From Candidatus Heimdallarchaeota archaeon (GTDB taxonomy: Archaea; Asgardarchaeota; Heimdallarchaeia; Hodarchaeales; Hodarchaeaceae), in NCBI GenBank assembly GCA_020353515.1, contig CP070695.1:1077584-1141583 (forward strand): a DNA stretch of 64,000 bases. Direction: 5' to 3'. The notes beneath the pieces were generated by a model. The model was given only the letters and a program-made list of their open reading frames with translations, was not told the origin of the DNA and did not search any database. The position numbers and the translations under genes are program-made. Positions 37,566 through 48,350 of this stretch are shown here, in pieces (position 1 is the first letter of the stretch; each line of letters opens with the position of its first letter).

Positions 37566-40331
37566 ATGACAGTTCTCGAGAAAAACAATTCTGAATTATG
37601 GAATCGGTATCAATCTGCTCTAGAGAATTACCAGGAATTTCATGATAGAGAAGAGGTATTAACCGAATTTCGAACAATTGTAATCTCAAAAAATCCCCCT
37701 ATTGATCTTCTTACAAAAGTAGCCAGTCATTTTCTAAAATTCAAACAGGTCGAGGATGCAAAAAAGACATTTGGACGAATCTTGCAGATAGATGACACAC
37801 ATCGAGAGACATGGAAACAATTATCCTCTCTTTACTTTAAACTCAAAGATCCGAGAAAGGGAGAGTTCTGTCTTCAAAAGTATTATTCATTGGCAGGTGG
37901 TAATCCCCAACATCTTCAGAAAGCAACTCAATTACGATTAGCTAGTTCTGGTAGATTAAAATCGTTACCAACTAACCAAGAACTCGGCCTACAAACAGGT
38001 AAACTGATACAATCCTCGTCACCTAGAAGTATCATGAACCTTGCAGATTTTGAGAAATATTTTGAAATTTCAAGACGAACCCTCCCACTTACGATCAAGA
38101 AAATACTTCAATTTGCCCAACATCAAGTTGTGGATTACCGCATTTTCAATGAACAATCTGGAGCACTGGGTTCATCGCGGTTAGAAATCTTGCAGGATCA
38201 AAAATTAATCGAATTCCTGAGAAATAAAAAGATTAATAGGTTATATCAATTTCAAGAAGAGGCCATCAAAGCAATTCTCGATTCTCATGATGTGTGTATC
38301 ACTGCACCAACTGGAAATGGTAAAACTGAGGGTTTTCTACTCCCTGCGATACTTAAGATTAGGAAGAACAAAGGATATGGAGTTCAACTTCTTCTGGTCT
38401 ATCCAATGAAGGCCTTAGCGAAGGACCAATTACGAAAAATAGAAAATTATGCTAAGATTCTGAACCTAACCGTGAAAGTATTCGATGGTGATACCTCTCA
38501 TTATCAACGGAAGAAAATCTATGCAGATCCTCCTGAAATACTAATCACTAATCCTGATATCTTACATTATCATTTGGGGATTGGAAAAAATGCTAGTCGT
38601 TTTCAGGATCTGTTAGCGGGCCTTAAGATTGTCATCTTGGATGAGATTCACACTTATTCGGGAACCTTCGGGAGTAATATGTTTTTCATTGTGAAGCGAC
38701 TTGAAAGGGTGGTTAACCATAAGCTACAATTTATTGGGGCTTCTGCGACTGTTGCCAATGCTAGTAAATTTGTTTCCCGACTTTTAGACAGGCCAATCAA
38801 AGTTATTGAATGCAAGAATGGGAAACGAGGGAAACTGCACTTCTTAATTTTGGCTCCGTTTAGTGGAATGTCTACATTAGACAGTATGATAAACTTAGTA
38901 AATAGCATTATGGGTCTTGGAAAGATTCTTGTCTTTCAAGATTCACATAGAAGTGTAGAACTACTCTATCAAAAACTCGGTGGAAAAGTTCGGAAAGTGG
39001 GGATTCACAGAGCAGGATTGGAGAGAAAAATTCGTGAGCAGGTCGAAACGGATTTCCGAGATGGTGTCCTTGATTTACTGGTAGCCACCCCGACTCTCGA
39101 ACTAGGGATCGATATAGGAGATTTAGATATCGTTGTCACCCCTCCTATTGCGGTGAATAGAGCCATGCAACGAATTGGTCGGGCTGGACGGAAGGGCCAG
39201 GAATCCCTTGCGATCATTCTATTAAATTCAGAAGATCCTATTAGCCATTATTATCTCCAGTATCCAGAACGCTATTATCAGGATATTGAGGATGTCTTTT
39301 TCGATCCTGAGAACCCTAATGTAACGGAACATCAACTGTTATGTGCCTCTCTGGACAGTCCTCTTGATTTAAGTCAAGGTGATTTTCCTCGGTATGTAAC
39401 TACCCTGCGACAGCTGGTCAATGAGAGCTTCCTTAACCAGGTCAATGCCTCTGTTTTAATGCCTACTGAAGCAGGAATGGCAAAAGCACGAAAGTATTCC
39501 ATTCGTGGACAGACTCATGAAATTCAGATTAAGTGTGGTGGACGAAGGATTGGTAAGCGTGCAATGCCTCTTGCCATGCTTGAATTATACCCTGGTGCCT
39601 TGTATTATGCTGCAGGAACTCGGTATCGAGTAGCTAGTTTTCATTTCAATGGCATGAGAGGAACTGCTCACTTAGTTAAACCCAAAAGCAGTTGGGGGAC
39701 AACCTTTCCTCTCTCTGGATTTAAACCTGAGATTGTAGATATTCATAGAAATTATCATGCTTTTGGACTCGAAGTTGCGTATATAGAGGCTAAAGTTCTC
39801 CAGACCGTCTGGGGGTATACGCTTGAATCCCCAAATGGAACATCCCAGCATCGCCTCCGTGATCCCCTTTATTATTCGTCTCGCTCTAAAGGAATACTCT
39901 TTCGATCACCCATACTTCCGCTAGATACATTGGATCTAGATCGTAACACTCAAGTTGCCTCGCGTCATACTCTAGTTCATGTGATTTTACATGCCAGTCT
40001 TCCGTTTATTGGAGGACAATTACATGAAATTAGTGGGTTGGTACTCCTCCCTCAGGGATACATCTTATTGTTTGATAATGCAGCTGGTTCTGGGGTTTGT
40101 GCTATGCTTTGTGATCATTTACAGGAATTATTTTCCCGAGCATATGATATTCTAGGATGTGATTGTAAAGCTCCTGAGGGGTGTCCTAGATGCACTTTTC
40201 TCCCTCGTTGTAGTCATAATAATACGAAGCTCGATAAATTAGGAGCTCGTTCCTTGTTAAAAAGTATTCTGGATGAAGTAAAAGTTCCCTTGGGTGATGA
40301 TTACAATCACTTTGCCCAAACCCTTCACTGA
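37566..40331 (+). CDS. Hrq1/MrfA(YprA)-family SF2 helicase with DUF1998 Cys4 domain and N-terminal TPR
   Basis: APTGNGKT, YPMKALAKDQ, TNPD, DEIH, SAT, TLELGIDIG, QRIGRAGR, CDC..GCPRC..C. Confidence 0.92.
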   Translation: MTVLEKNNSELWNRYQSALENYQEFHDREEVLTEFRTIVISKNPPIDLLTKVASHFLKFKQVEDAKKTFGRILQIDDTHRETWKQLSSLYFKLKDPRKGEFCLQKYYSLAGGNPQHLQKATQLRLASSGRLKSLPTNQELGLQTGKLIQSSSPRSIMNLADFEKYFEISRRTLPLTIKKILQFAQHQVVDYRIFNEQSGALGSSRLEILQDQKLIEFLRNKKINRLYQFQEEAIKAILDSHDVCITAPTGNGKTEGFLLPAILKIRKNKGYGVQLLLVYPMKALAKDQLRKIENYAKILNLTVKVFDGDTSHYQRKKIYADPPEILITNPDILHYHLGIGKNASRFQDLLAGLKIVILDEIHTYSGTFGSNMFFIVKRLERVVNHKLQFIGASATVANASKFVSRLLDRPIKVIECKNGKRGKLHFLILAPFSGMSTLDSMINLVNSIMGLGKILVFQDSHRSVELLYQKLGGKVRKVGIHRAGLERKIREQVETDFRDGVLDLLVATPTLELGIDIGDLDIVVTPPIAVNRAMQRIGRAGRKGQESLAIILLNSEDPISHYYLQYPERYYQDIEDVFFDPENPNVTEHQLLCASLDSPLDLSQGDFPRYVTTLRQLVNESFLNQVNASVLMPTEAGMAKARKYSIRGQTHEIQIKCGGRRIGKRAMPLAMLELYPGALYYAAGTRYRVASFHFNGMRGTAHLVKPKSSWGTTFPLSGFKPEIVDIHRNYHAFGLEVAYIEAKVLQTVWGYTLESPNGTSQHRLRDPLYYSSRSKGILFRSPILPLDTLDLDRNTQVASRHTLVHVILHASLPFIGGQLHEISGLVLLPQGYILLFDNAAGSGVCAMLCDHLQELFSRAYDILGCDCKAPEGCPRCTFLPRCSHNNTKLDKLGARSLLKSILDEVKVPLGDDYNHFAQTLH

Positions 40332-41515: not shown

Positions 41516-42034
41516 TCATTTTACTGAGAAGGTATTGCAAAATAAACATCTTGGTCTGTTGTCAGTGAAAAAAACGAATCGAGTACAATTATGACAACGA
41601 ATAGTTATTTGAGAATCTTTTAGATCTGCTTTATTTGAGAGATTTTCTTGTAACTCTGGAAATATTAGGAAGAAAAAGGCTCGTTTTTTTGTGGGAGGCA
41701 AATGAAGTCGTGCCAGATGAAATAACGCATGATATTTTTTATCTAATTTAAGTAGGCATTCGATAACCATTTTGTTAATGAAATTGTCAGTGGTAGGAAT
41801 TAGCTCTTGGAGATAGGTTAAGGATTTGTAATAGTTCTTCGTCTCAAAATAAAGCCATGCAAGTTTTCGTTGCACTTGCTGTCGTACACTCGGAGCGTTT
41901 CGATAAAGGTAATGGAGCTTGCTTGCTGCTTCATTCCAGCGACCTGTTTGGATAAGCTCGTCAATCTTGTTGAAAATTTCCGCTTTTCTTTTTTCTGTTT
42001 CAGAACATACTCTTGTTTTAATTGGACGAGGCAT
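41516..42034 (-). CDS. TPR-like helical protein with C-terminal Zn ribbon
   Basis: LAWLYFETKNYYKS; CHNC..CLFC. Confidence 0.72.
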   Translation of the reverse strand: MPRPIKTRVCSETEKRKAEIFNKIDELIQTGRWNEAASKLHYLYRNAPSVRQQVQRKLAWLYFETKNYYKSLTYLQELIPTTDNFINKMVIECLLKLDKKYHALFHLARLHLPPTKKRAFFFLIFPELQENLSNKADLKDSQITIRCHNCTRFVFFTDNRPRCLFCNTFSVK

Positions 42035-42038
42035 CGAG

Positions 42039-42545
42039 CTAATCTCGGTCTTTTCGTGATCTTTTCCATAGAGGAACAGAGGAAAAACGGATTCGGTACC
42101 GCTTATTCATCATACGGAGTATATCTTTCCGAACTTCTGGTACTAAAGATTGTTGCTTTGCACTAAGACGCTTTCTTAAGGCTCCCTCTTTTGAAATTGT
42201 AATGATTCCCAGCCCTGTTTCCTCAGCCCATGACACTTGTTGTCGTTTTGTTTCTGAGGGGAGTGAGTCGAATGCCTCATCAGGACATACTAAATAACAG
42301 TAATCGCAAAAATTACAATACATTGCGGGATGTTTTACATGTAATTCTGTTTCTGCTTCAAAAAAATAAATTGAACTATCAAGCTGATTAATTGCTGCTA
42401 GATCAATCCTTAATTGATCTTGTTTAATCATTTTTTGGAGATCTAAATGCTTTGAAGTGATCGTTAACTCAGGATAGGTCTGAAACTTAAGCTTGTCTAC
42501 TATTACATCATTAAGATGATTGACTAATTCTGCCTCGGATTGCAT
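42039..42545 (-). CDS. PD-(D/E)xK-fold protein, MmcB-like
   Basis: E..L, RIDLAA, YFFEAE, YCNFCDYCYLVCP, GLGII. Confidence 0.6.
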   Translation of the reverse strand: MQSEAELVNHLNDVIVDKLKFQTYPELTITSKHLDLQKMIKQDQLRIDLAAINQLDSSIYFFEAETELHVKHPAMYCNFCDYCYLVCPDEAFDSLPSETKRQQVSWAEETGLGIITISKEGALRKRLSAKQQSLVPEVRKDILRMMNKRYRIRFSSVPLWKRSRKDRD

Positions 42546-42685: not shown

Positions 42686-42961
42686 TTGACGAGCGATCCT
42701 GAAATTCCAGTCTTTAATTCTCCCTTTTTGGATGAAGTATTTTTCAACAGCCCTTTATGTCAAATTTGTGAGTATGCGAGTTTATTTGGCGGAGTTTGTT
42801 CACTTCTTCTGAATCGACGGATTCCTGTGAATTTTACTGTGAAACAATCGCAAATTGTGAGCTGTTCCGCGCATCGTAATTGGTTGCAAACTTTGGATGG
42901 TGAGGATTCTTCATTTTGGGAGGAACTGGGTGAAAACCAAACTCATCATGATCCAGGATAG
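42686..42961 (+). CDS. Small Cys-rich protein
   Basis: GGTGA RBS with TTG start; CQIC..C..C. Confidence 0.65.
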   Translation: MTSDPEIPVFNSPFLDEVFFNSPLCQICEYASLFGGVCSLLLNRRIPVNFTVKQSQIVSCSAHRNWLQTLDGEDSSFWEELGENQTHHDPG

Positions 42962-42966
42962 GTTAT

Positions 42967-44874
42967 ATGATGACAACCATGGAAGTATCTCCTCCCTCTG
43001 ACAAACTAAAATTTGATCCATCCTTACAAGAACAACTTCTTCTTCCAAAGGTTCACGATCATAATTTACTAGTAATTTACTCATCAGAGGAAGCTTTAAT
43101 TCGGATTCAATCTCTTATCATCCTTTTTTATCTAACCCAATCTGATCCCCAACCATCAAGAATACTTATTTTAACTAAGAAGAATCAGCAACAGAAGTTT
43201 CAAACGATACTAAAAGCTCATTTAACTCAACTTTCAACCATTCTCAACGGAACTATCCTCCCTTATGCCCGAAAGTTCGATTATAATAGGTTTCGAGTAA
43301 TCTTTTCTACAGCAAGAACGACAAAGAACGATTTGATAGAGGGTTTCTTTCCACATGATCATTTTTCTCTCATTATCGTGAATCATGCTGAAGGAGGCTC
43401 ATCATCCAGTTCTCTAAGATATCTTGTCAATCATTTGACCAACTTTCGAGTTGTTGGGTTTACTCAGGTGACTAATTCAGACCGATTAAGAAGTGTTTGT
43501 AAAAATCTACACTTTCAGGAGGTAGTTCAGTTAGAAGAACCTGTTACACACCTGGAAAAATCACATATCCAACACTACTCTATTCCATTACCTCAAGAGT
43601 ATTTTTTCATACTGGAAATCTTAGATCAGATCAAGTCTCATGAATTGGATGAACTGGAAAAACTTGGATTTGATGTTTCATCTAGAAGTGCTTATCGTGA
43701 GATTACAGCAATTCATGAAAGTCTTAAAAAAGACAATAATCCGAAAGCACTCATCCGTGTAAGTAATTTACTCAGGATTATGGTTCTACAGAAGATTGTG
43801 ATTTCCCAGGGCTTTCTAGCAGTTCAAAATTATTTTAAAGCTCTTCAATCTCGTGTTGAACAGGAACAAGACTTTCCAGGAAAGCGGACCATTTTTGAGT
43901 TCCTAACTGACATGAAAATTCTGAAGCTTCGCGAATTCATCAGCATACATAAGGATCTGCAACATCCAAAGGTGCAAATGCTTCTCAAACTTATCTCCCA
44001 ATATAAAACAGGAATTTCTATAGTTAGTCATAACTACCATAATTCTGCTTTTTTAAAGGATTATTTAGGTCAGCAAGGGTTTTCAGTTATCCAAATAGAG
44101 GAACCCATCAGTTCTTTGACTGATCTTAACCTTCAACGCGCCCTTTTACCATTTACTGAAAAGAAAGTGAGTATCTGTATAACTAATACTGTTCATGAAC
44201 TAATAGCTCGTAATGCTCTGGTAATTATCGCTTACGATGTTAATGCAGGCATTGTTGAGTCCCTTAATAGTATAGATGTTGATATCCCCAGAGTCTTCTT
44301 ATTAGCAAAGCAAACAAATGAGGAGGCACGGTTTTTTTACTTAAAAAGATTAGGATCACGACCTCTTCATCAGATTGAGAAATTAGATTCCATAAATGAG
44401 AGTTTACCTTCTAATTCGAGAAGTCAAACGAGAAACAAGGATGATGGTGACTCCCCCAAGATAGAGAAACATGATTCCCCTTCATTAGTTTTCAACTCTT
44501 CTTTATTCGAGGTTGGGATTCCATATCTCTTTTCCAAAAAGAATTACACTATCCAGTCTAGTAATGAAATTTCCTTTCCTGGCTTCATTCTTGGTAAAAA
44601 AGTCTGTTTTCTGATTCTCCTTCCAGATAGTGTTGATTTTTTTCTATCTGCAAAACCTTCTCAACTCTTTAGCATGCTAATAAATGAATTTACCCAGATT
44701 CATTTAATTTTCTTCTCTCACAGCTTTACTAATCTCAGTTTTGACTACCAATGTGAACTCCTTCATACAGCAAATCGACATAATGTATGGATTTCATTTT
44801 TAACCAAGGAGGAAGATCTTTCAAAGTTGGTTAAACGAGTACTTACCAATTCTATCTATGAAGGTTTATCATAA
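42967..44874 (+). CDS. Degenerate Hef/FANCM-like (SF2 helicase + ERCC4) protein, predicted catalytically inactive
   Basis: Hef layout retained (VIFSTARTTKNDL, FSLIIV, HPK, VIIAYD) but Walker A reads YSSEEAL, DEAH reads NHAE, TAS reads TQV, and no ERK nuclease motif is present. Confidence 0.65.
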   Translation: MMTTMEVSPPSDKLKFDPSLQEQLLLPKVHDHNLLVIYSSEEALIRIQSLIILFYLTQSDPQPSRILILTKKNQQQKFQTILKAHLTQLSTILNGTILPYARKFDYNRFRVIFSTARTTKNDLIEGFFPHDHFSLIIVNHAEGGSSSSSLRYLVNHLTNFRVVGFTQVTNSDRLRSVCKNLHFQEVVQLEEPVTHLEKSHIQHYSIPLPQEYFFILEILDQIKSHELDELEKLGFDVSSRSAYREITAIHESLKKDNNPKALIRVSNLLRIMVLQKIVISQGFLAVQNYFKALQSRVEQEQDFPGKRTIFEFLTDMKILKLREFISIHKDLQHPKVQMLLKLISQYKTGISIVSHNYHNSAFLKDYLGQQGFSVIQIEEPISSLTDLNLQRALLPFTEKKVSICITNTVHELIARNALVIIAYDVNAGIVESLNSIDVDIPRVFLLAKQTNEEARFFYLKRLGSRPLHQIEKLDSINESLPSNSRSQTRNKDDGDSPKIEKHDSPSLVFNSSLFEVGIPYLFSKKNYTIQSSNEISFPGFILGKKVCFLILLPDSVDFFLSAKPSQLFSMLINEFTQIHLIFFSHSFTNLSFDYQCELLHTANRHNVWISFLTKEEDLSKLVKRVLTNSIYEGLS

Positions 44875-45063: not shown

Positions 45064-46590
45064 ATGAATAAAAGGAAATATTCTTTTTTGTTATTAATTG
45101 GATTTTTCATTGTTTCAATATATTCTAGAAATCATAATATGAACATTTCAATTATTCAAGAACCAAAACCCTACGAAAAGAAGAATGTAATTGTATCCTT
45201 TCAATTAGAACCTCATAATCCGATTTTAATCGATGGAAATGCTGATTTTATCGAGAAAGCAGCATTAGAAGGCTGGGATCTAGGTGGTACACAAGATGGG
45301 ACCGCTTCCAAACCGTACATAATTTCTGATCTTTCTATTACGGGTTCTTCAGATCAGGATCTTATTAGTATTTCTAATAGCGATGTGTACTTTAAAATCC
45401 TAAATAATACTATTTCAGGGGGAGATAACGGAATCAGTTTATACAATACTAGCAATTGCAATATTGAATCATCATTTCCGAGAGAGGTCCCCTTTTGGTA
45501 CGGATGAGTTTTCAGACTTTTATTCTTCTCATATTACTCTACCTCCTAGTACCAAGTACTGCGTCCATGAGAAGTGATGTTGAGGGGGATCTTTCTCTCT
45601 TAGATCACCCCTCTATAACTAAAAATCCAAGAATACCAGTTTGTTCCTCAACTATCAGTCAAAATCAGCCTCATTCACCTATTAAGATAGTCAATAACTC
45701 CGATTTTGGGAATCAAGCAGCTGAGGATCAGTCCAGACGCAAATGGAGATCTTACTGTTGATATTGCTTATTCTATTGCTGGGGGCGCAAATAACTTGGA
45801 TCAATCCCCCTCTACTACACGAAATCATCTTGTACTGGGTGTTTTACTCAATCCTAGGATAGGAGAAATCCTATCGGGCGAGGTAACAGTTCAATGGATC
45901 GCGATTGATTTACTTGAACATAATATCACGTATTCTGTCTCTTACTCTCCTGATAGAGGAAAAAACTGGATTTTACTAGAAACAGGATTGAGAAATCCCT
46001 TCTATACATGGGATACAACGACTGTAGATGATGGTGCTCAATATCTTATTCAAATAATAGCGTATTGTAGTGAAGGAGCGAGGTGTGTCTTTTCTTCTGA
46101 TATTCCCTTTACTATTGACAACTTACGTCATATCCATCATTTCTCCATATCTACACCTGGAAATGGAGATGTTATTAGAGGAACAATTAATATTTTATGG
46201 ACGGGAGAGGATGTTTTTGGTCATTTGGTGACTTTTAACGTCTCATTATCATCTAATAAAGGCGTAACTTGGATCGACATAGGAACAACCACGGAATTGT
46301 CGTGGCTTTGGGATAGTACTACCGTACCAGACGGGGATCGGTATGTGATTCAGGTCACGGCTCTCTGTAGTGAGGGGTCATGGTGTACGCCCTCTAGAGT
46401 TGCTTTTTCCATAGCAAATTGGCCTGACTGGAAGCTATCTAACACTCTCACCTCTCCATCTCTCACTAGCTTTGATCAAGCTGCTCCCCTTCTTAACACA
46501 ATACCACTTATCCAGCTTCTAGAGTTCGGTAGTGTTTTGTTCTTCGTTCTCACTCTTGTGATTGTAGTCCGATGTCAGCAATCAAAGTAA
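45064..46590 (+). pseudogene. Fragments of two NosD/beta-helix plus Ig-like surface protein genes (45064-45507; 45495-45761 plus 45706-46590)
   Basis: Two signal peptides and two HxPIxI..NxDF starts, both truncated; the third ORF carries two YSxDxGxxW..WDTTTVxDG repeats and a TM. Confidence 0.7.
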
Positions 46591-46604: not shown

Positions 46605-48350
46605 TCACTGTAACTTAAACACTCGGTTCATTTTTGCGAAAAAGAGGTCATAAGCATTGTATAATGTTTGAAGATTACGATAAACATGGGTGGGGGGTAA
46701 CAGTGGTCTCATTTTGATGGCTCGATAGTCTAAGATTAAGCTGGCGGCAAAATCCGACTCGGATCTGATCCCTCGTCCAATAGCTTGTGATATTCCCCGT
46801 GTGACTGGTAACATGGACAATAGTTTAGCCATACGGTACCCCCATCTTTTAAGATAAAGAGATCTGAGCAGCTGGTTAGAAGCGTCTGGTCGGGGATATG
46901 GAAGACCTGCGATAATAATCAAGGATAAGAGGCTTCGTTTTGTTTTAGAATCTAGGATTTCTATTCCTTCAGATAACCTACCTCCAATCACACCAAAAAT
47001 GCACTCATGGTTCTTCTGTCTTAATTCATCTAAGAAGAAAGGTGTGGTACCTGGGTTTTCAATATAAACGTCTGGTAAAGAGATGTGAGCTAATAATTTC
47101 TGTTTAAATTCATGAGAAGTAGTAAAAACGATGGTATGGAAGGGATTACTCGAATGCAATCGTTCAATGACTGCTGCCATGGTTTCATACGTCCTGACGC
47201 TTCGCTCCGAGAACTTAGAGGTGAAATTTCTTTGATAGAGGATCCCATTCAGACTGAACTGGAAATCTGAAGGAATTTGTAGAGTAGCGTAATTCACATC
47301 GAAAAGCGCTTTGTATAAGGCAAGGGGGGTAAAAGTTCCTGACATTAGGAGTACCCTGTCGAAAAAATTGTTTATAAAATTAAATGCCTGATGGGGATAG
47401 GGATTTAGCTGAATTAATTTGTTTTTTTTCTCTGATACCCAGATATCCCCTCTAGATATTAGAAAATCTTTAACCTTTAACAGTGTCGCTTTCTCAACCA
47501 GTGTCAAGTTGTACTCGTGATCTAGGAAAGCATCCAAAGAAGCTGCAGACAGGTTCCTCGGTCTCTCCACTCTCCCGTTCTGTGATAATATTAGCTCTTG
47601 TAAGCTATCGATTACTTTCAATGGGATTATAGCTTGAGCTTTGTTTAGTTCGTGTAATGTGATTTCTGCTTCAAAGTCTGCTGTAAAATTATGTCCTTCG
47701 TCAATTATTGCCATTTGGTGAGGAAATGAGCTTTGTGAGATTAACTGGGAAAACATGTCTTGAAGGTTTTTACTCCTCAGGTAAGTCTGAGTAGTAACTA
47801 CAATGTTTGAATAGGGAATGCATCGTTTTATAATGTGATATGGACAACCAAACTCTCTGAAAGCCTCTTTGAATGTATCTATGGTGATGGAACCTTCATG
47901 GGCAGTAATTGGTATTTGTTCTACAATCGCAGGAAAATCTTCTTCTGGAACCGACTTTGCTTGTTCTAGGAAAGGACATCGAATCTGTTGACAGATGTTG
48001 TGATAGAATTGAGGGATCTCGTCTCGTTTTATACACAGATCCGCTTTCAAGATAAGAGGTAGGACGGTTAAGTAACCATATTTCTTACTATTCGCAATTT
48101 TAAAAATTTCCTCCAGAAAAACTCGGAATACTTGGGTCTTTGTTCGTACAAATATAAACAACTGATAATTTTTTGACCTCACCAAGGGAAGAGCATGAAT
48201 TAACGCCATAATCGTCTTCCCAAATCCAACTGGGGCGTGAATCATTGCCTTAGGATTTTTTTCGACAAATCGAAGGAATTTTGTTTGATAAGTGCGCAGT
48301 TCTTTGTGGGGAAAGAGCTGAAGTGCTGGGGGAAGATTCGTGTCAATCAT
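46605..48350 (-). CDS. XPD/Rad3/DinG-family Fe-S helicase
   Basis: APVGFGKT, four Cys ending in GCPY, IDEGHN, SGT, GRLSEGI, QAIGRGIR, LDYR. Confidence 0.9.
   Translation of the reverse strand: MIDTNLPPALQLFPHKELRTYQTKFLRFVEKNPKAMIHAPVGFGKTIMALIHALPLVRSKNYQLFIFVRTKTQVFRVFLEEIFKIANSKKYGYLTVLPLILKADLCIKRDEIPQFYHNICQQIRCPFLEQAKSVPEEDFPAIVEQIPITAHEGSITIDTFKEAFREFGCPYHIIKRCIPYSNIVVTTQTYLRSKNLQDMFSQLISQSSFPHQMAIIDEGHNFTADFEAEITLHELNKAQAIIPLKVIDSLQELILSQNGRVERPRNLSAASLDAFLDHEYNLTLVEKATLLKVKDFLISRGDIWVSEKKNKLIQLNPYPHQAFNFINNFFDRVLLMSGTFTPLALYKALFDVNYATLQIPSDFQFSLNGILYQRNFTSKFSERSVRTYETMAAVIERLHSSNPFHTIVFTTSHEFKQKLLAHISLPDVYIENPGTTPFFLDELRQKNHECIFGVIGGRLSEGIEILDSKTKRSLLSLIIIAGLPYPRPDASNQLLRSLYLKRWGYRMAKLLSMLPVTRGISQAIGRGIRSESDFAASLILDYRAIKMRPLLPPTHVYRNLQTLYNAYDLFFAKMNRVFKLQ

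Follow-up and report, generated by a model that had tools for sequence, protein, structure and literature searches.

An intact Hef-type protein without helicase or nuclease active sites in Hodarchaeales archaea

Here, we describe an archaeal gene that derives from a Hef-type gene and that encodes a protein lacking, as judged by alignment with intact relatives, every residue needed for ATP binding and hydrolysis and for DNA cutting. We call this protein dead Hef. Its gene occupies positions 42967–44874 (forward strand) of a 64,000-nucleotide stretch of DNA, the window, from Candidatus Heimdallarchaeota archaeon (assembly GCA_020353515.1, contig CP070695.1); the window is positions 1,077,584–1,141,583 of a single 4.94-Mb contig. 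According to existing descriptions, the Hef and XPF proteins of archaea form homodimers whose subunits are active. To our knowledge, non-catalytic steering paralogues in the XPF/MUS81/FANCM family (ERCC1, FAAP24, EME1, the helicase-like module of XPF, and Zip2–Spo16) have been described as a trait of eukaryotes. Dead Hef indicates that pseudo-enzyme diversification of this family occurs in archaea too and, together with a small protein encoded immediately upstream, it provides a defined two-gene unit for biochemistry. No description of the dead-Hef family was found in the literature searched. The family is unannotated: it has no Pfam or NCBIfam entry, and the sources call its members hypothetical.

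A Hef-type protein without active sites

The dead-Hef open reading frame (ORF) runs uninterrupted for 635 amino acids (aa) in local DNA of ~37% G+C. In-frame ATGs stand at 42967, 42970, and 42979. The likely start is 42970, because orthologues open with MTT..., and the database gene call (P0003) starts at 42979 and yields 631 aa. A preliminary description, made from the letters of the window, had pointed to an intact Hef-like frame of 635 aa; the frame is indeed uninterrupted and conserved, and by homology and fold the protein belongs to the Hef/XPF/FANCM superfamily.

The evidence for homology comes from profile searches. While a Pfam scan of dead Hef gave no match, including to the ERCC4 family, the NCBIfam Hef nuclease model PRK13766 matches residues 70–345 (E = 9e-22, 77 bits). 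This score lies far below the curated cut-off of 610 bits, which the true Hef of the same genome exceeds with 653 bits. Queried as a single sequence, dead Hef has one sequence match in the Protein Data Bank (PDB), the Pyrococcus furiosus Hef helicase 1wp9 (E = 1e-6). A profile of 35 family members matches 1wp9 at E = 5e-17 over residues 16–459, compared with 0.009 for FANCM and 0.37 for XPF. Finally, when the dead family is aligned by hhalign with 27 Hefs whose catalytic residues are intact, the match reaches E = 1.6e-37 across 617 collinear columns, the C-terminal domain included.

The genome's own Hef (G000:C1:716300-718555) is 752 aa long, retains GLGKT, DEVH, GDY, and ERK, and shares 23% identity with dead Hef over the helicase part. 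The genome also encodes a short XPF (G000:C1:3154098-3154670), and both proteins look active (GDY...ERK or ERK). Outside the window, two further loci give weak ERCC4 matches, G000:C1:327886-328215 (28.8 bits) and G000:C1:71006-71326 (27.5 bits); the former contains stop codons inside a longer match to the Hef model.

An AlphaFold model of dead Hef, made with 35 sequences, has a mean predicted local distance difference test score (pLDDT) of 80.9 and shows a RecA1-like domain, a helical insertion, a RecA2-like domain, a linker, and a C-terminal alpha/beta domain. The layout is as follows:

43003..43581, forward strand: RecA1-like domain, residues 13–205 (from model secondary structure, the column table, and alignment with the genome's own Hef)
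43582..43956, forward strand: Hef-type helical insertion, residues 206–330 (pLDDT 85–93, the best-modelled part; aligns with the insertions of 1wp9 and true Hefs)
43957..44361, forward strand: RecA2-like domain, residues 331–465 (begins with the invariant HPK; motifs IV, V, and VI replaced)
44362..44478, forward strand: low-confidence, disordered linker, residues 466–504 (pLDDT 27–48; a short conserved NxxL helix)
44479..44856, forward strand: predicted ERCC4-fold domain without catalytic residues, residues 505–630 (from the model, Foldseek, VIA-align, and the residue table)

In the RecA1-like domain, SSEEALI occupies the position of the P-loop and NHAE that of DExH, and NGTILPYAR and TARTTKND preserve the TGxxxPxxR and TPxxxxND motifs. 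NLxRI and SQGF are conserved in the helical insertion of the family. Consensus comparison reveals no counterpart in the linker of the QxxLxxF found in the linker of true Hefs.

Foldseek searches with the whole model rank 1wp9 first (2.5e-23). Full-length human XPF (~1e-22, ~700 alignment columns), the FANCM translocase (1.7e-19), and then RIG-I-like helicases follow. The C-terminal domain folds well alone (residues 497–635, pLDDT 88, predicted template modelling score 0.83). Its Foldseek matches are Aeropyrum pernix XPF, the P. furiosus Hef nuclease (template modelling score, TM, 0.69/0.71), the FANCM C-terminus, FAAP24, the ERCC1 central domain, and Mus81–Eme1, at E ~1e-4 and TM 0.6–0.7. An exhaustive VIA-align comparison against 48,161 chains agrees: the best 12 matches are all of the ERCC4 family (XPF/Hef/ERCC1/FANCM/FAAP24/Mus81–Eme1; Z 8.7–11.7), and the 13th is an unrelated fold at Z 6.5. 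Aligned by hhalign to the true-Hef profile, the domain alone gives no significant match (E = 0.23, wrong segment). The predicted ERCC4 assignment thus draws on the modelled structure and on the collinear full-length alignment, the domain by itself not being recognizable by sequence. No tandem helix–hairpin–helix domain, (HhH)2, follows the ERCC4 fold, a loss that the preliminary description does not mention; nothing in the dead family aligns with Hef columns L707, L708, and G732. Net charge and isoelectric point, taken by domain, are not informative. The predicted structure is a superfamily 2 (SF2) module followed by an ERCC4 fold, as had been anticipated in the preliminary description, and the observation made there of a Hef-like order of strands, a helical insertion, and HPK is confirmed.

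Replacement of the active sites emerges from a column table that combines the alignment of 31 full-length family members with that of 27 intact Hefs; we consider the columns at least 90% conserved in Hefs. In the nuclease strands, the register may be one residue off, but no register gives back the acidic/ERK set.

Motif I: Hefs P34-T-G-L-G38-K39-T40; dead family S-(T/S)-E-E-A-L-I, with K changed to L in 29/31
Motif II: Hefs D137, E138, H140; dead family N/L, Q/N/H, E
Motif III: Hefs A164, P166, G167; dead family Q, deleted, deleted
Motif IV: Hefs F362, R366; dead family V, Y
Motif V: Hefs E426, G427, D429; dead family deleted, deleted, I
Motif VI: Hefs Q450, R451, R454, R456; dead family N, N/S, V, P
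Nuclease site: Hefs D535; dead family N/S/H
Nuclease site: Hefs E538; dead family L
Nuclease site: Hefs D563; dead family G
Nuclease site: Hefs E573, R574, K575; dead family V/I/L, P, E/D
Nuclease site: Hefs D579; dead family F/Y

The earlier observation that Walker A, DEAH, motif III, and the ERCC4 catalytic residues are replaced in this one protein therefore extends to 31/31 full-length members, and to motif VI as well. In a motif scan of 182 proteins, no family member contains GxGKT, DExH, QxxGRxxR, or ERK, while nearly all non-family matches carry helicase motifs. The columns that the dead family retains are G93/P97/R100 of TGxxxPxxR (30–31/31), T113/P114/N119/D120 of TPxxxxND (26–31/31), Q291, and H335-P336-K337 of HPK (31/31). 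In SF2 helicases, TGxxxPxxR and TPxxxxND touch the nucleic-acid strand on RecA1. By extension, the retained motifs of dead Hef could likewise act as strand contacts.

Distribution, selection, and origin

The dead-Hef family is narrow. Among 5.8 billion proteins, a word-indexed search picked out 43 homologues of 39–80% identity, the closest named ones being assigned to Hodarchaeales, Hodarchaeota, Heimdallarchaeota, or Promethearchaeota. When 1.84 billion cluster representatives were scanned exhaustively with HMMER, ~7 full-length family clusters and a few short fragments (P0049–P0054) came up, followed by ordinary Hefs at E = 6e-16 or weaker. The best non-family matches are P0055 (E = 6e-16), whose cluster is from Hodarchaeales, and P0056 (E = 9e-16). 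Searched against whole genomes, the family profile identifies members in 20/21 other genomes of the window's own family (f1, Hodarchaeales) and in 0/62 genomes from elsewhere in the class, a set that includes two from the same order. Three matches in family f7, at ~1e-25, are frames of ~800 aa, the length of an ordinary Hef. A normal Hef also exists in every f1 genome, and Hef is nearly universal in the phylum (112/121 sampled genomes).

Within its range, the gene is maintained. The frame is intact over 470–660 aa in 20 genomes, with one TAA in the match of G053, and 38 invariant columns are peculiar to the dead family (for example, Y38, R46, R102, D105, Y106, N267, R270, and N407). Ratios of nonsynonymous to synonymous substitution rates (dN/dS), estimated by the Nei–Gojobori method (NG86) on codon alignments in which most pairs are saturated at synonymous sites, are the following:

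Dead Hef, helicase-like part: 0.04–0.16
Dead Hef, ERCC4-like part: 0.11–0.28
True Hef of the same genomes, helicase: 0.03–0.11
True Hef of the same genomes, nuclease: 0.05–0.15

For the least saturated pair, G060–G061 (dS 0.30), dN/dS is 0.136 for dead Hef versus 0.081 for true Hef, and at the amino acid level dead Hef evolves about twice as fast as Hef. These ratios point clearly to purifying selection on dead Hef. Orthologue dN/dS had been proposed as a check for neutral decay, and none was found. Between G058 and G065, the normal Hefs are 92% identical (dS 0.49) and the dead Hefs 70% (dS 1.45), a discordance that suggests recombination, or between-species transfer, of one of the two genes.

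The origin of dead Hef is harder to fix. A maximum-likelihood tree of helicase modules unites the dead family in a single clade (100), with a very long stem (2.84 substitutions per site), and groups it with the f1 Hefs, P0055, and P0056 (Shimodaira–Hasegawa-like approximate likelihood ratio test 99). Placing those Hefs together in a clade of their own, apart from the dead family, improves the log-likelihood by 8.3 units, and the approximately unbiased (AU) test does not reject this topology (p 0.62). Long-branch effects are likely. On the simplest reading, dead Hef would have arisen by duplication of Hef within Hodarchaeales, because its members are taxonomically restricted and its best matches lie there; its exact origin within the Hefs is not settled by the tree.

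Hodarchaeales have been proposed as the sister group to eukaryotes (PMC10307638), and the phylogenomics paper that treats them makes no mention of Hef, XPF, or FANCM (PMC10307638). The preliminary description spoke of eukaryote-like subfunctionalisation. The pseudo-enzyme Hef paralogue in an archaeon is there, whereas the likeness to eukaryotes is one of analogy, not orthology, given the profile values for Hef (5e-17), FANCM (0.009), and XPF (0.37) and the confinement of the family to one family of Hodarchaeales. We favour an independent, lineage-restricted origin. The narrow distribution and this likely independent origin limit the bearing of dead Hef on eukaryogenesis. Another scenario is that a split into catalytic and non-catalytic Hefs began in the Hodarchaeales lineage before or around eukaryogenesis, such that the family would be a surviving relative of the source of the eukaryotic inactive XPF-family subunits. 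We consider this scenario very improbable; the AU test leaves more than one place for the family among the Hefs, and its relation to eukaryotic proteins was judged by profile E-values.

A two-gene unit and its possible role

Directly upstream of dead Hef lies its partner gene:

42686..42961, forward strand: small Cys/His protein gene (91 aa, TTG start, acidic tail)

The stop codon of the small gene precedes the dead-Hef ATG by 5 nucleotides (nt), and an AGGA overlaps that stop. In 9/9 other loci inspected, the small gene is immediately upstream of dead Hef, with a 4–14 nt overlap in several, and in four metagenome-assembled genomes the pair carries successive NCBI locus tags. From this arrangement, the two genes are predicted to form an operon and to be co-transcribed and translationally linked. 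The small protein has 54 homologues (51–85% identity, 75–106 aa), and all the named ones are of the Hodarchaeales type. It probably holds a zinc site, since C25, C28, C38, and C60 are invariant and H63 is nearly so. No Pfam, NCBIfam, PADLOC, or PDB profile matches it, the ESM Atlas gave nothing usable, and the search found no longer fused forms, which is weak evidence. Complex prediction for residues 9–466 of dead Hef with the small protein (score 0.01, mark 0.32) counts neither way.

In contrast to the small gene, the ERCC4-like domain is not always kept. Specifically, 7/20 genomes, in the G049/G052–G055 and G060/G061 clades, carry a form of 472–486 aa that ends right after the RecA2-like domain, and in G056 the ERCC4-like domain is truncated. 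No separate ERCC4-like gene adjoins the short forms at the loci inspected, while the small Cys/His partner is kept at all seven short-form loci inspected. The ERCC4-like domain has thus been lost in two or three sublineages and is dispensable; a quick tree of the family does not decide between one shared loss and several for the short forms. It follows that the pseudo-helicase and the small protein make up the core of the system. In the G049/G052–G055 clade, the normal Hef is itself a helicase-only ORF of 522 aa (for example, G055:C4:5397-6935 and G049:C96:75968-77506, with equivalents in G052 and G053), and the ~252-aa short XPF alone gives a strong ERCC4 match (>80 bits). This joint loss in Hef and dead Hef is one event and a weak hint of a link between the two domains. 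G060 and G061 keep a full Hef and the short XPF while their dead Hef lacks the ERCC4-like domain.

How does dead Hef compare with characterized systems? Archaeal Hef (1wp9; nuclease 1j22–1j24; PRK13766) is its nearest relative by sequence and fold. The two share the order RecA1, helical insertion, RecA2, linker, ERCC4, as well as HPK, TGxxxPxxR, and TPxxxxND. Unlike Hef, dead Hef has motifs I–VI and GD...ERK...D replaced and possesses neither the tandem helix–hairpin–helix domain, (HhH)2, nor QxxLxxF. Eukaryotic XPF/ERCC4 (6sxa/6sxb, 9qec) likewise joins an SF2-like module without ATPase motifs to an ERCC4 fold, but its nuclease is active and it has (HhH)2, and the profile value for XPF reveals no specific sequence affinity. 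ERCC1, FAAP24, EME1, and Zip2–Spo16 resemble dead Hef in an ERCC4 fold that has lost its catalytic residues (Z 9.4–11.7); they have no SF2 module, however, whereas dead Hef joins a dead ERCC4 with a dead helicase, and the (HhH)2 by which ERCC1 and FAAP24 pair is missing from dead Hef. FANCM, P0055, and P0056 are Hef-derived with an inactive ERCC4-like C-terminus, but they keep DExH and other helicase motifs, while the translocase of dead Hef is dead. With active sites and/or (HhH)2 gone, dead Hef would appear to fall outside the functional definitions of Hef, XPF, FANCM, and ERCC1/FAAP24. By analogy, its way of working would come closest to that of the non-catalytic XPF/MUS81/FANCM proteins of eukaryotes. 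We do not count SHOC1 among doubly dead analogues, as no helicase-like domain is mentioned for it (PMC5962103).

We lean, with somewhat better than even confidence, toward the idea that the pseudo-helicase and the small protein make up a non-enzymatic DNA-structure-binding or adaptor unit that recruits or modulates active fork or lesion enzymes. In this view, a stable pair would form between the pseudo-helicase and the small protein, which probably binds zinc, and this pair would take part in fork or lesion processing as a subunit that binds DNA structures or serves as an adaptor. The RecA1 motifs TGxxxPxxR and TPxxxxND and the insertion domain could hold DNA or partners without translocation, and the pair could recruit or modulate active enzymes, such as Hef, the short XPF, or the neighbouring XPD/DinG-family helicase. 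As for the ERCC4-like domain, it would be an accessory, optional protein–protein module. From gene content, the always-kept partner candidate of dead Hef appears to be the small Cys protein rather than Hef or XPF. In favour of this adaptor role count the homology and fold of dead Hef, the loss of all catalytic motifs beside the kept TGxxxPxxR, TPxxxxND, and HPK, purifying selection, the presence in 20/21 f1 genomes alongside a normal Hef, the predicted operon with its conserved neighbours, the repair genes in the window, and the lack of a defence-family match. Several points weigh against it. The range of the family is narrow. (HhH)2 is absent, the protein ending 5 residues past the ERCC4 fold. 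The RecA2 nucleic-acid motifs IV and V are replaced too, which may have cost the protein its hold on DNA across the helicase cleft. Finally, the XPD/DinG neighbour is convergent, not co-transcribed, and is displaced in this genome and replaced in two others.

One rival explanation, which develops the pseudo-enzyme partner proposed in the preliminary description, is that dead Hef could be the non-catalytic half of a heterodimer of the XPF–ERCC1 or FANCM–FAAP24 type, its dead ERCC4 pairing with the nuclease domain of Hef or of the short XPF. The fold matches ERCC1, FAAP24, and Eme1 as well as active nucleases, the genome holds an active-looking Hef and short XPF, and the correlated absence of ERCC4 domains from Hef and dead Hef in G049/G052–G055, a single and weak event, agrees. 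Nonetheless, we regard such pairing as unlikely: (HhH)2, the main dimerization and DNA-binding element of XPF/ERCC1/FANCM/FAAP24 proteins, is lacking; the domain is missing from G060 and G061 despite their full Hef and short XPF, is missing from five genomes that keep the short XPF, and is truncated in G056; it evolves faster than the rest of dead Hef; and the constant part is the pseudo-helicase together with the small protein. A heterodimer is possible for the long form and cannot be the core function of the family. More doubtful still is a decoy or brake, by which the dead copy would compete with active Hef for branched DNA or shared partners and so restrain fork cleavage or regression. Normal Hef always co-occurs, and dead Hef keeps the insertion domain and the RecA1 contact motifs of Hef while its activity residues are gone; without the QxxLxxF linker motif of the Hef consensus, the tether would not be shared. 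But Hef is so nearly universal in Asgard archaea (the 112/121 genomes above) that co-occurrence is uninformative, and a decoy leaves the dedicated small partner gene unexplained.

Two further explanations do away with a repair role or with any role. RIG-I, MDA5, and LGP2 are strong structural neighbours, the ATPase and RecA2 contact motifs are gone, and the partner protein is of no known family, all of which could fit a scaffold re-used outside DNA repair, either for RNA or ligand sensing like RIG-I-like SF2 proteins or in a purely structural capacity. We give this explanation little credence, as the nearest sequence relatives are Hefs rather than RIG-I-like proteins, repair genes stand in the neighbourhood, and no defence family matches. 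Least credible of all is a functionless, decaying relic of a duplicated Hef. Loss of all catalytic residues and amino acid evolution at about twice the rate of Hef are what a relic would show; intact frames in 20 genomes at 39–80% identity, dN/dS far below 1, and the 38 invariant columns contradict it.

Related architectures and neighbouring genes

Other Hef derivatives exist among these archaea. The Hodarchaeales metagenome proteins P0055, P0056, and P0239 have DExH and some other helicase motifs, a C-terminal region without GD...ERK, and an HhH-like tail, which by sequence amounts to a putative FANCM-like architecture in Hodarchaeales; the Joint Genome Institute (JGI) name of the P0055 cluster is "Fanconi anemia group M protein". 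In addition, many genomes of the Asgard family f14 encode a second Hef paralogue of ~690–760 aa whose match to Hef covers the helicase part alone. These paralogues form a clade sister to the normal Hef of f14 (for example, G130:C49:15833-17368, G159:C174:37325-38899, and G139:C1:132856-134478).

The surroundings of the two-gene unit include the following features:

41516..42034, reverse strand: divergent neighbour (172 aa) with a weak TPR (TPR_6) match, a Cys pair at each end, and a C-terminal CxxC...CxxC, present in 7/9 other loci
42039..42545, reverse strand: divergent neighbour (168 aa) of no recognized family, in the same position in 9/9 other loci inspected
46605..48350, reverse strand: XPD/DinG-family helicase (581 aa; Pfam DEAD_2 and Helicase_C_2; NCBIfam rad3 subfamily at 96 bits, below cut-off)

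For the 168-aa neighbour, no NCBIfam or PADLOC family was found, and Pfam gave a weak sub-threshold Fer4 match alone. The count for the 172-aa neighbour is affected by loci in which it is partly cut at the edge; L027 and L031 have a different ORF there. A role for dead Hef and the small protein in a defence system was considered and rejected, as no PADLOC family matches either. The repair genes of the window near dead Hef are an MrfA-type helicase upstream, the XPD/DinG-family helicase, and then RadA. The MrfA-type protein (37566–40331) is a 921-aa DEAD/DEAH helicase with a ~200-aa N-terminal extension that matches no family and a C-terminal MrfA Zn-binding (MZB) domain.

The XPD/DinG-family helicase is convergent with dead Hef and directly adjoins it in most relatives. 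Here, three ORFs (147, 88, and 294 aa) at 45064–46590 separate the two, with weak Beta_helix and Big_7 matches and N-terminal hydrophobic segments. They look like a local insertion, because dead Hef and the helicase are directly adjacent in relatives. In G061 and G060 (L030:2964-3704 and L032:2964-3713), an ORF of 246–249 aa follows the short dead Hef in place of the helicase; with its C-terminal Cys cluster, it looks Cas4-like by eye.

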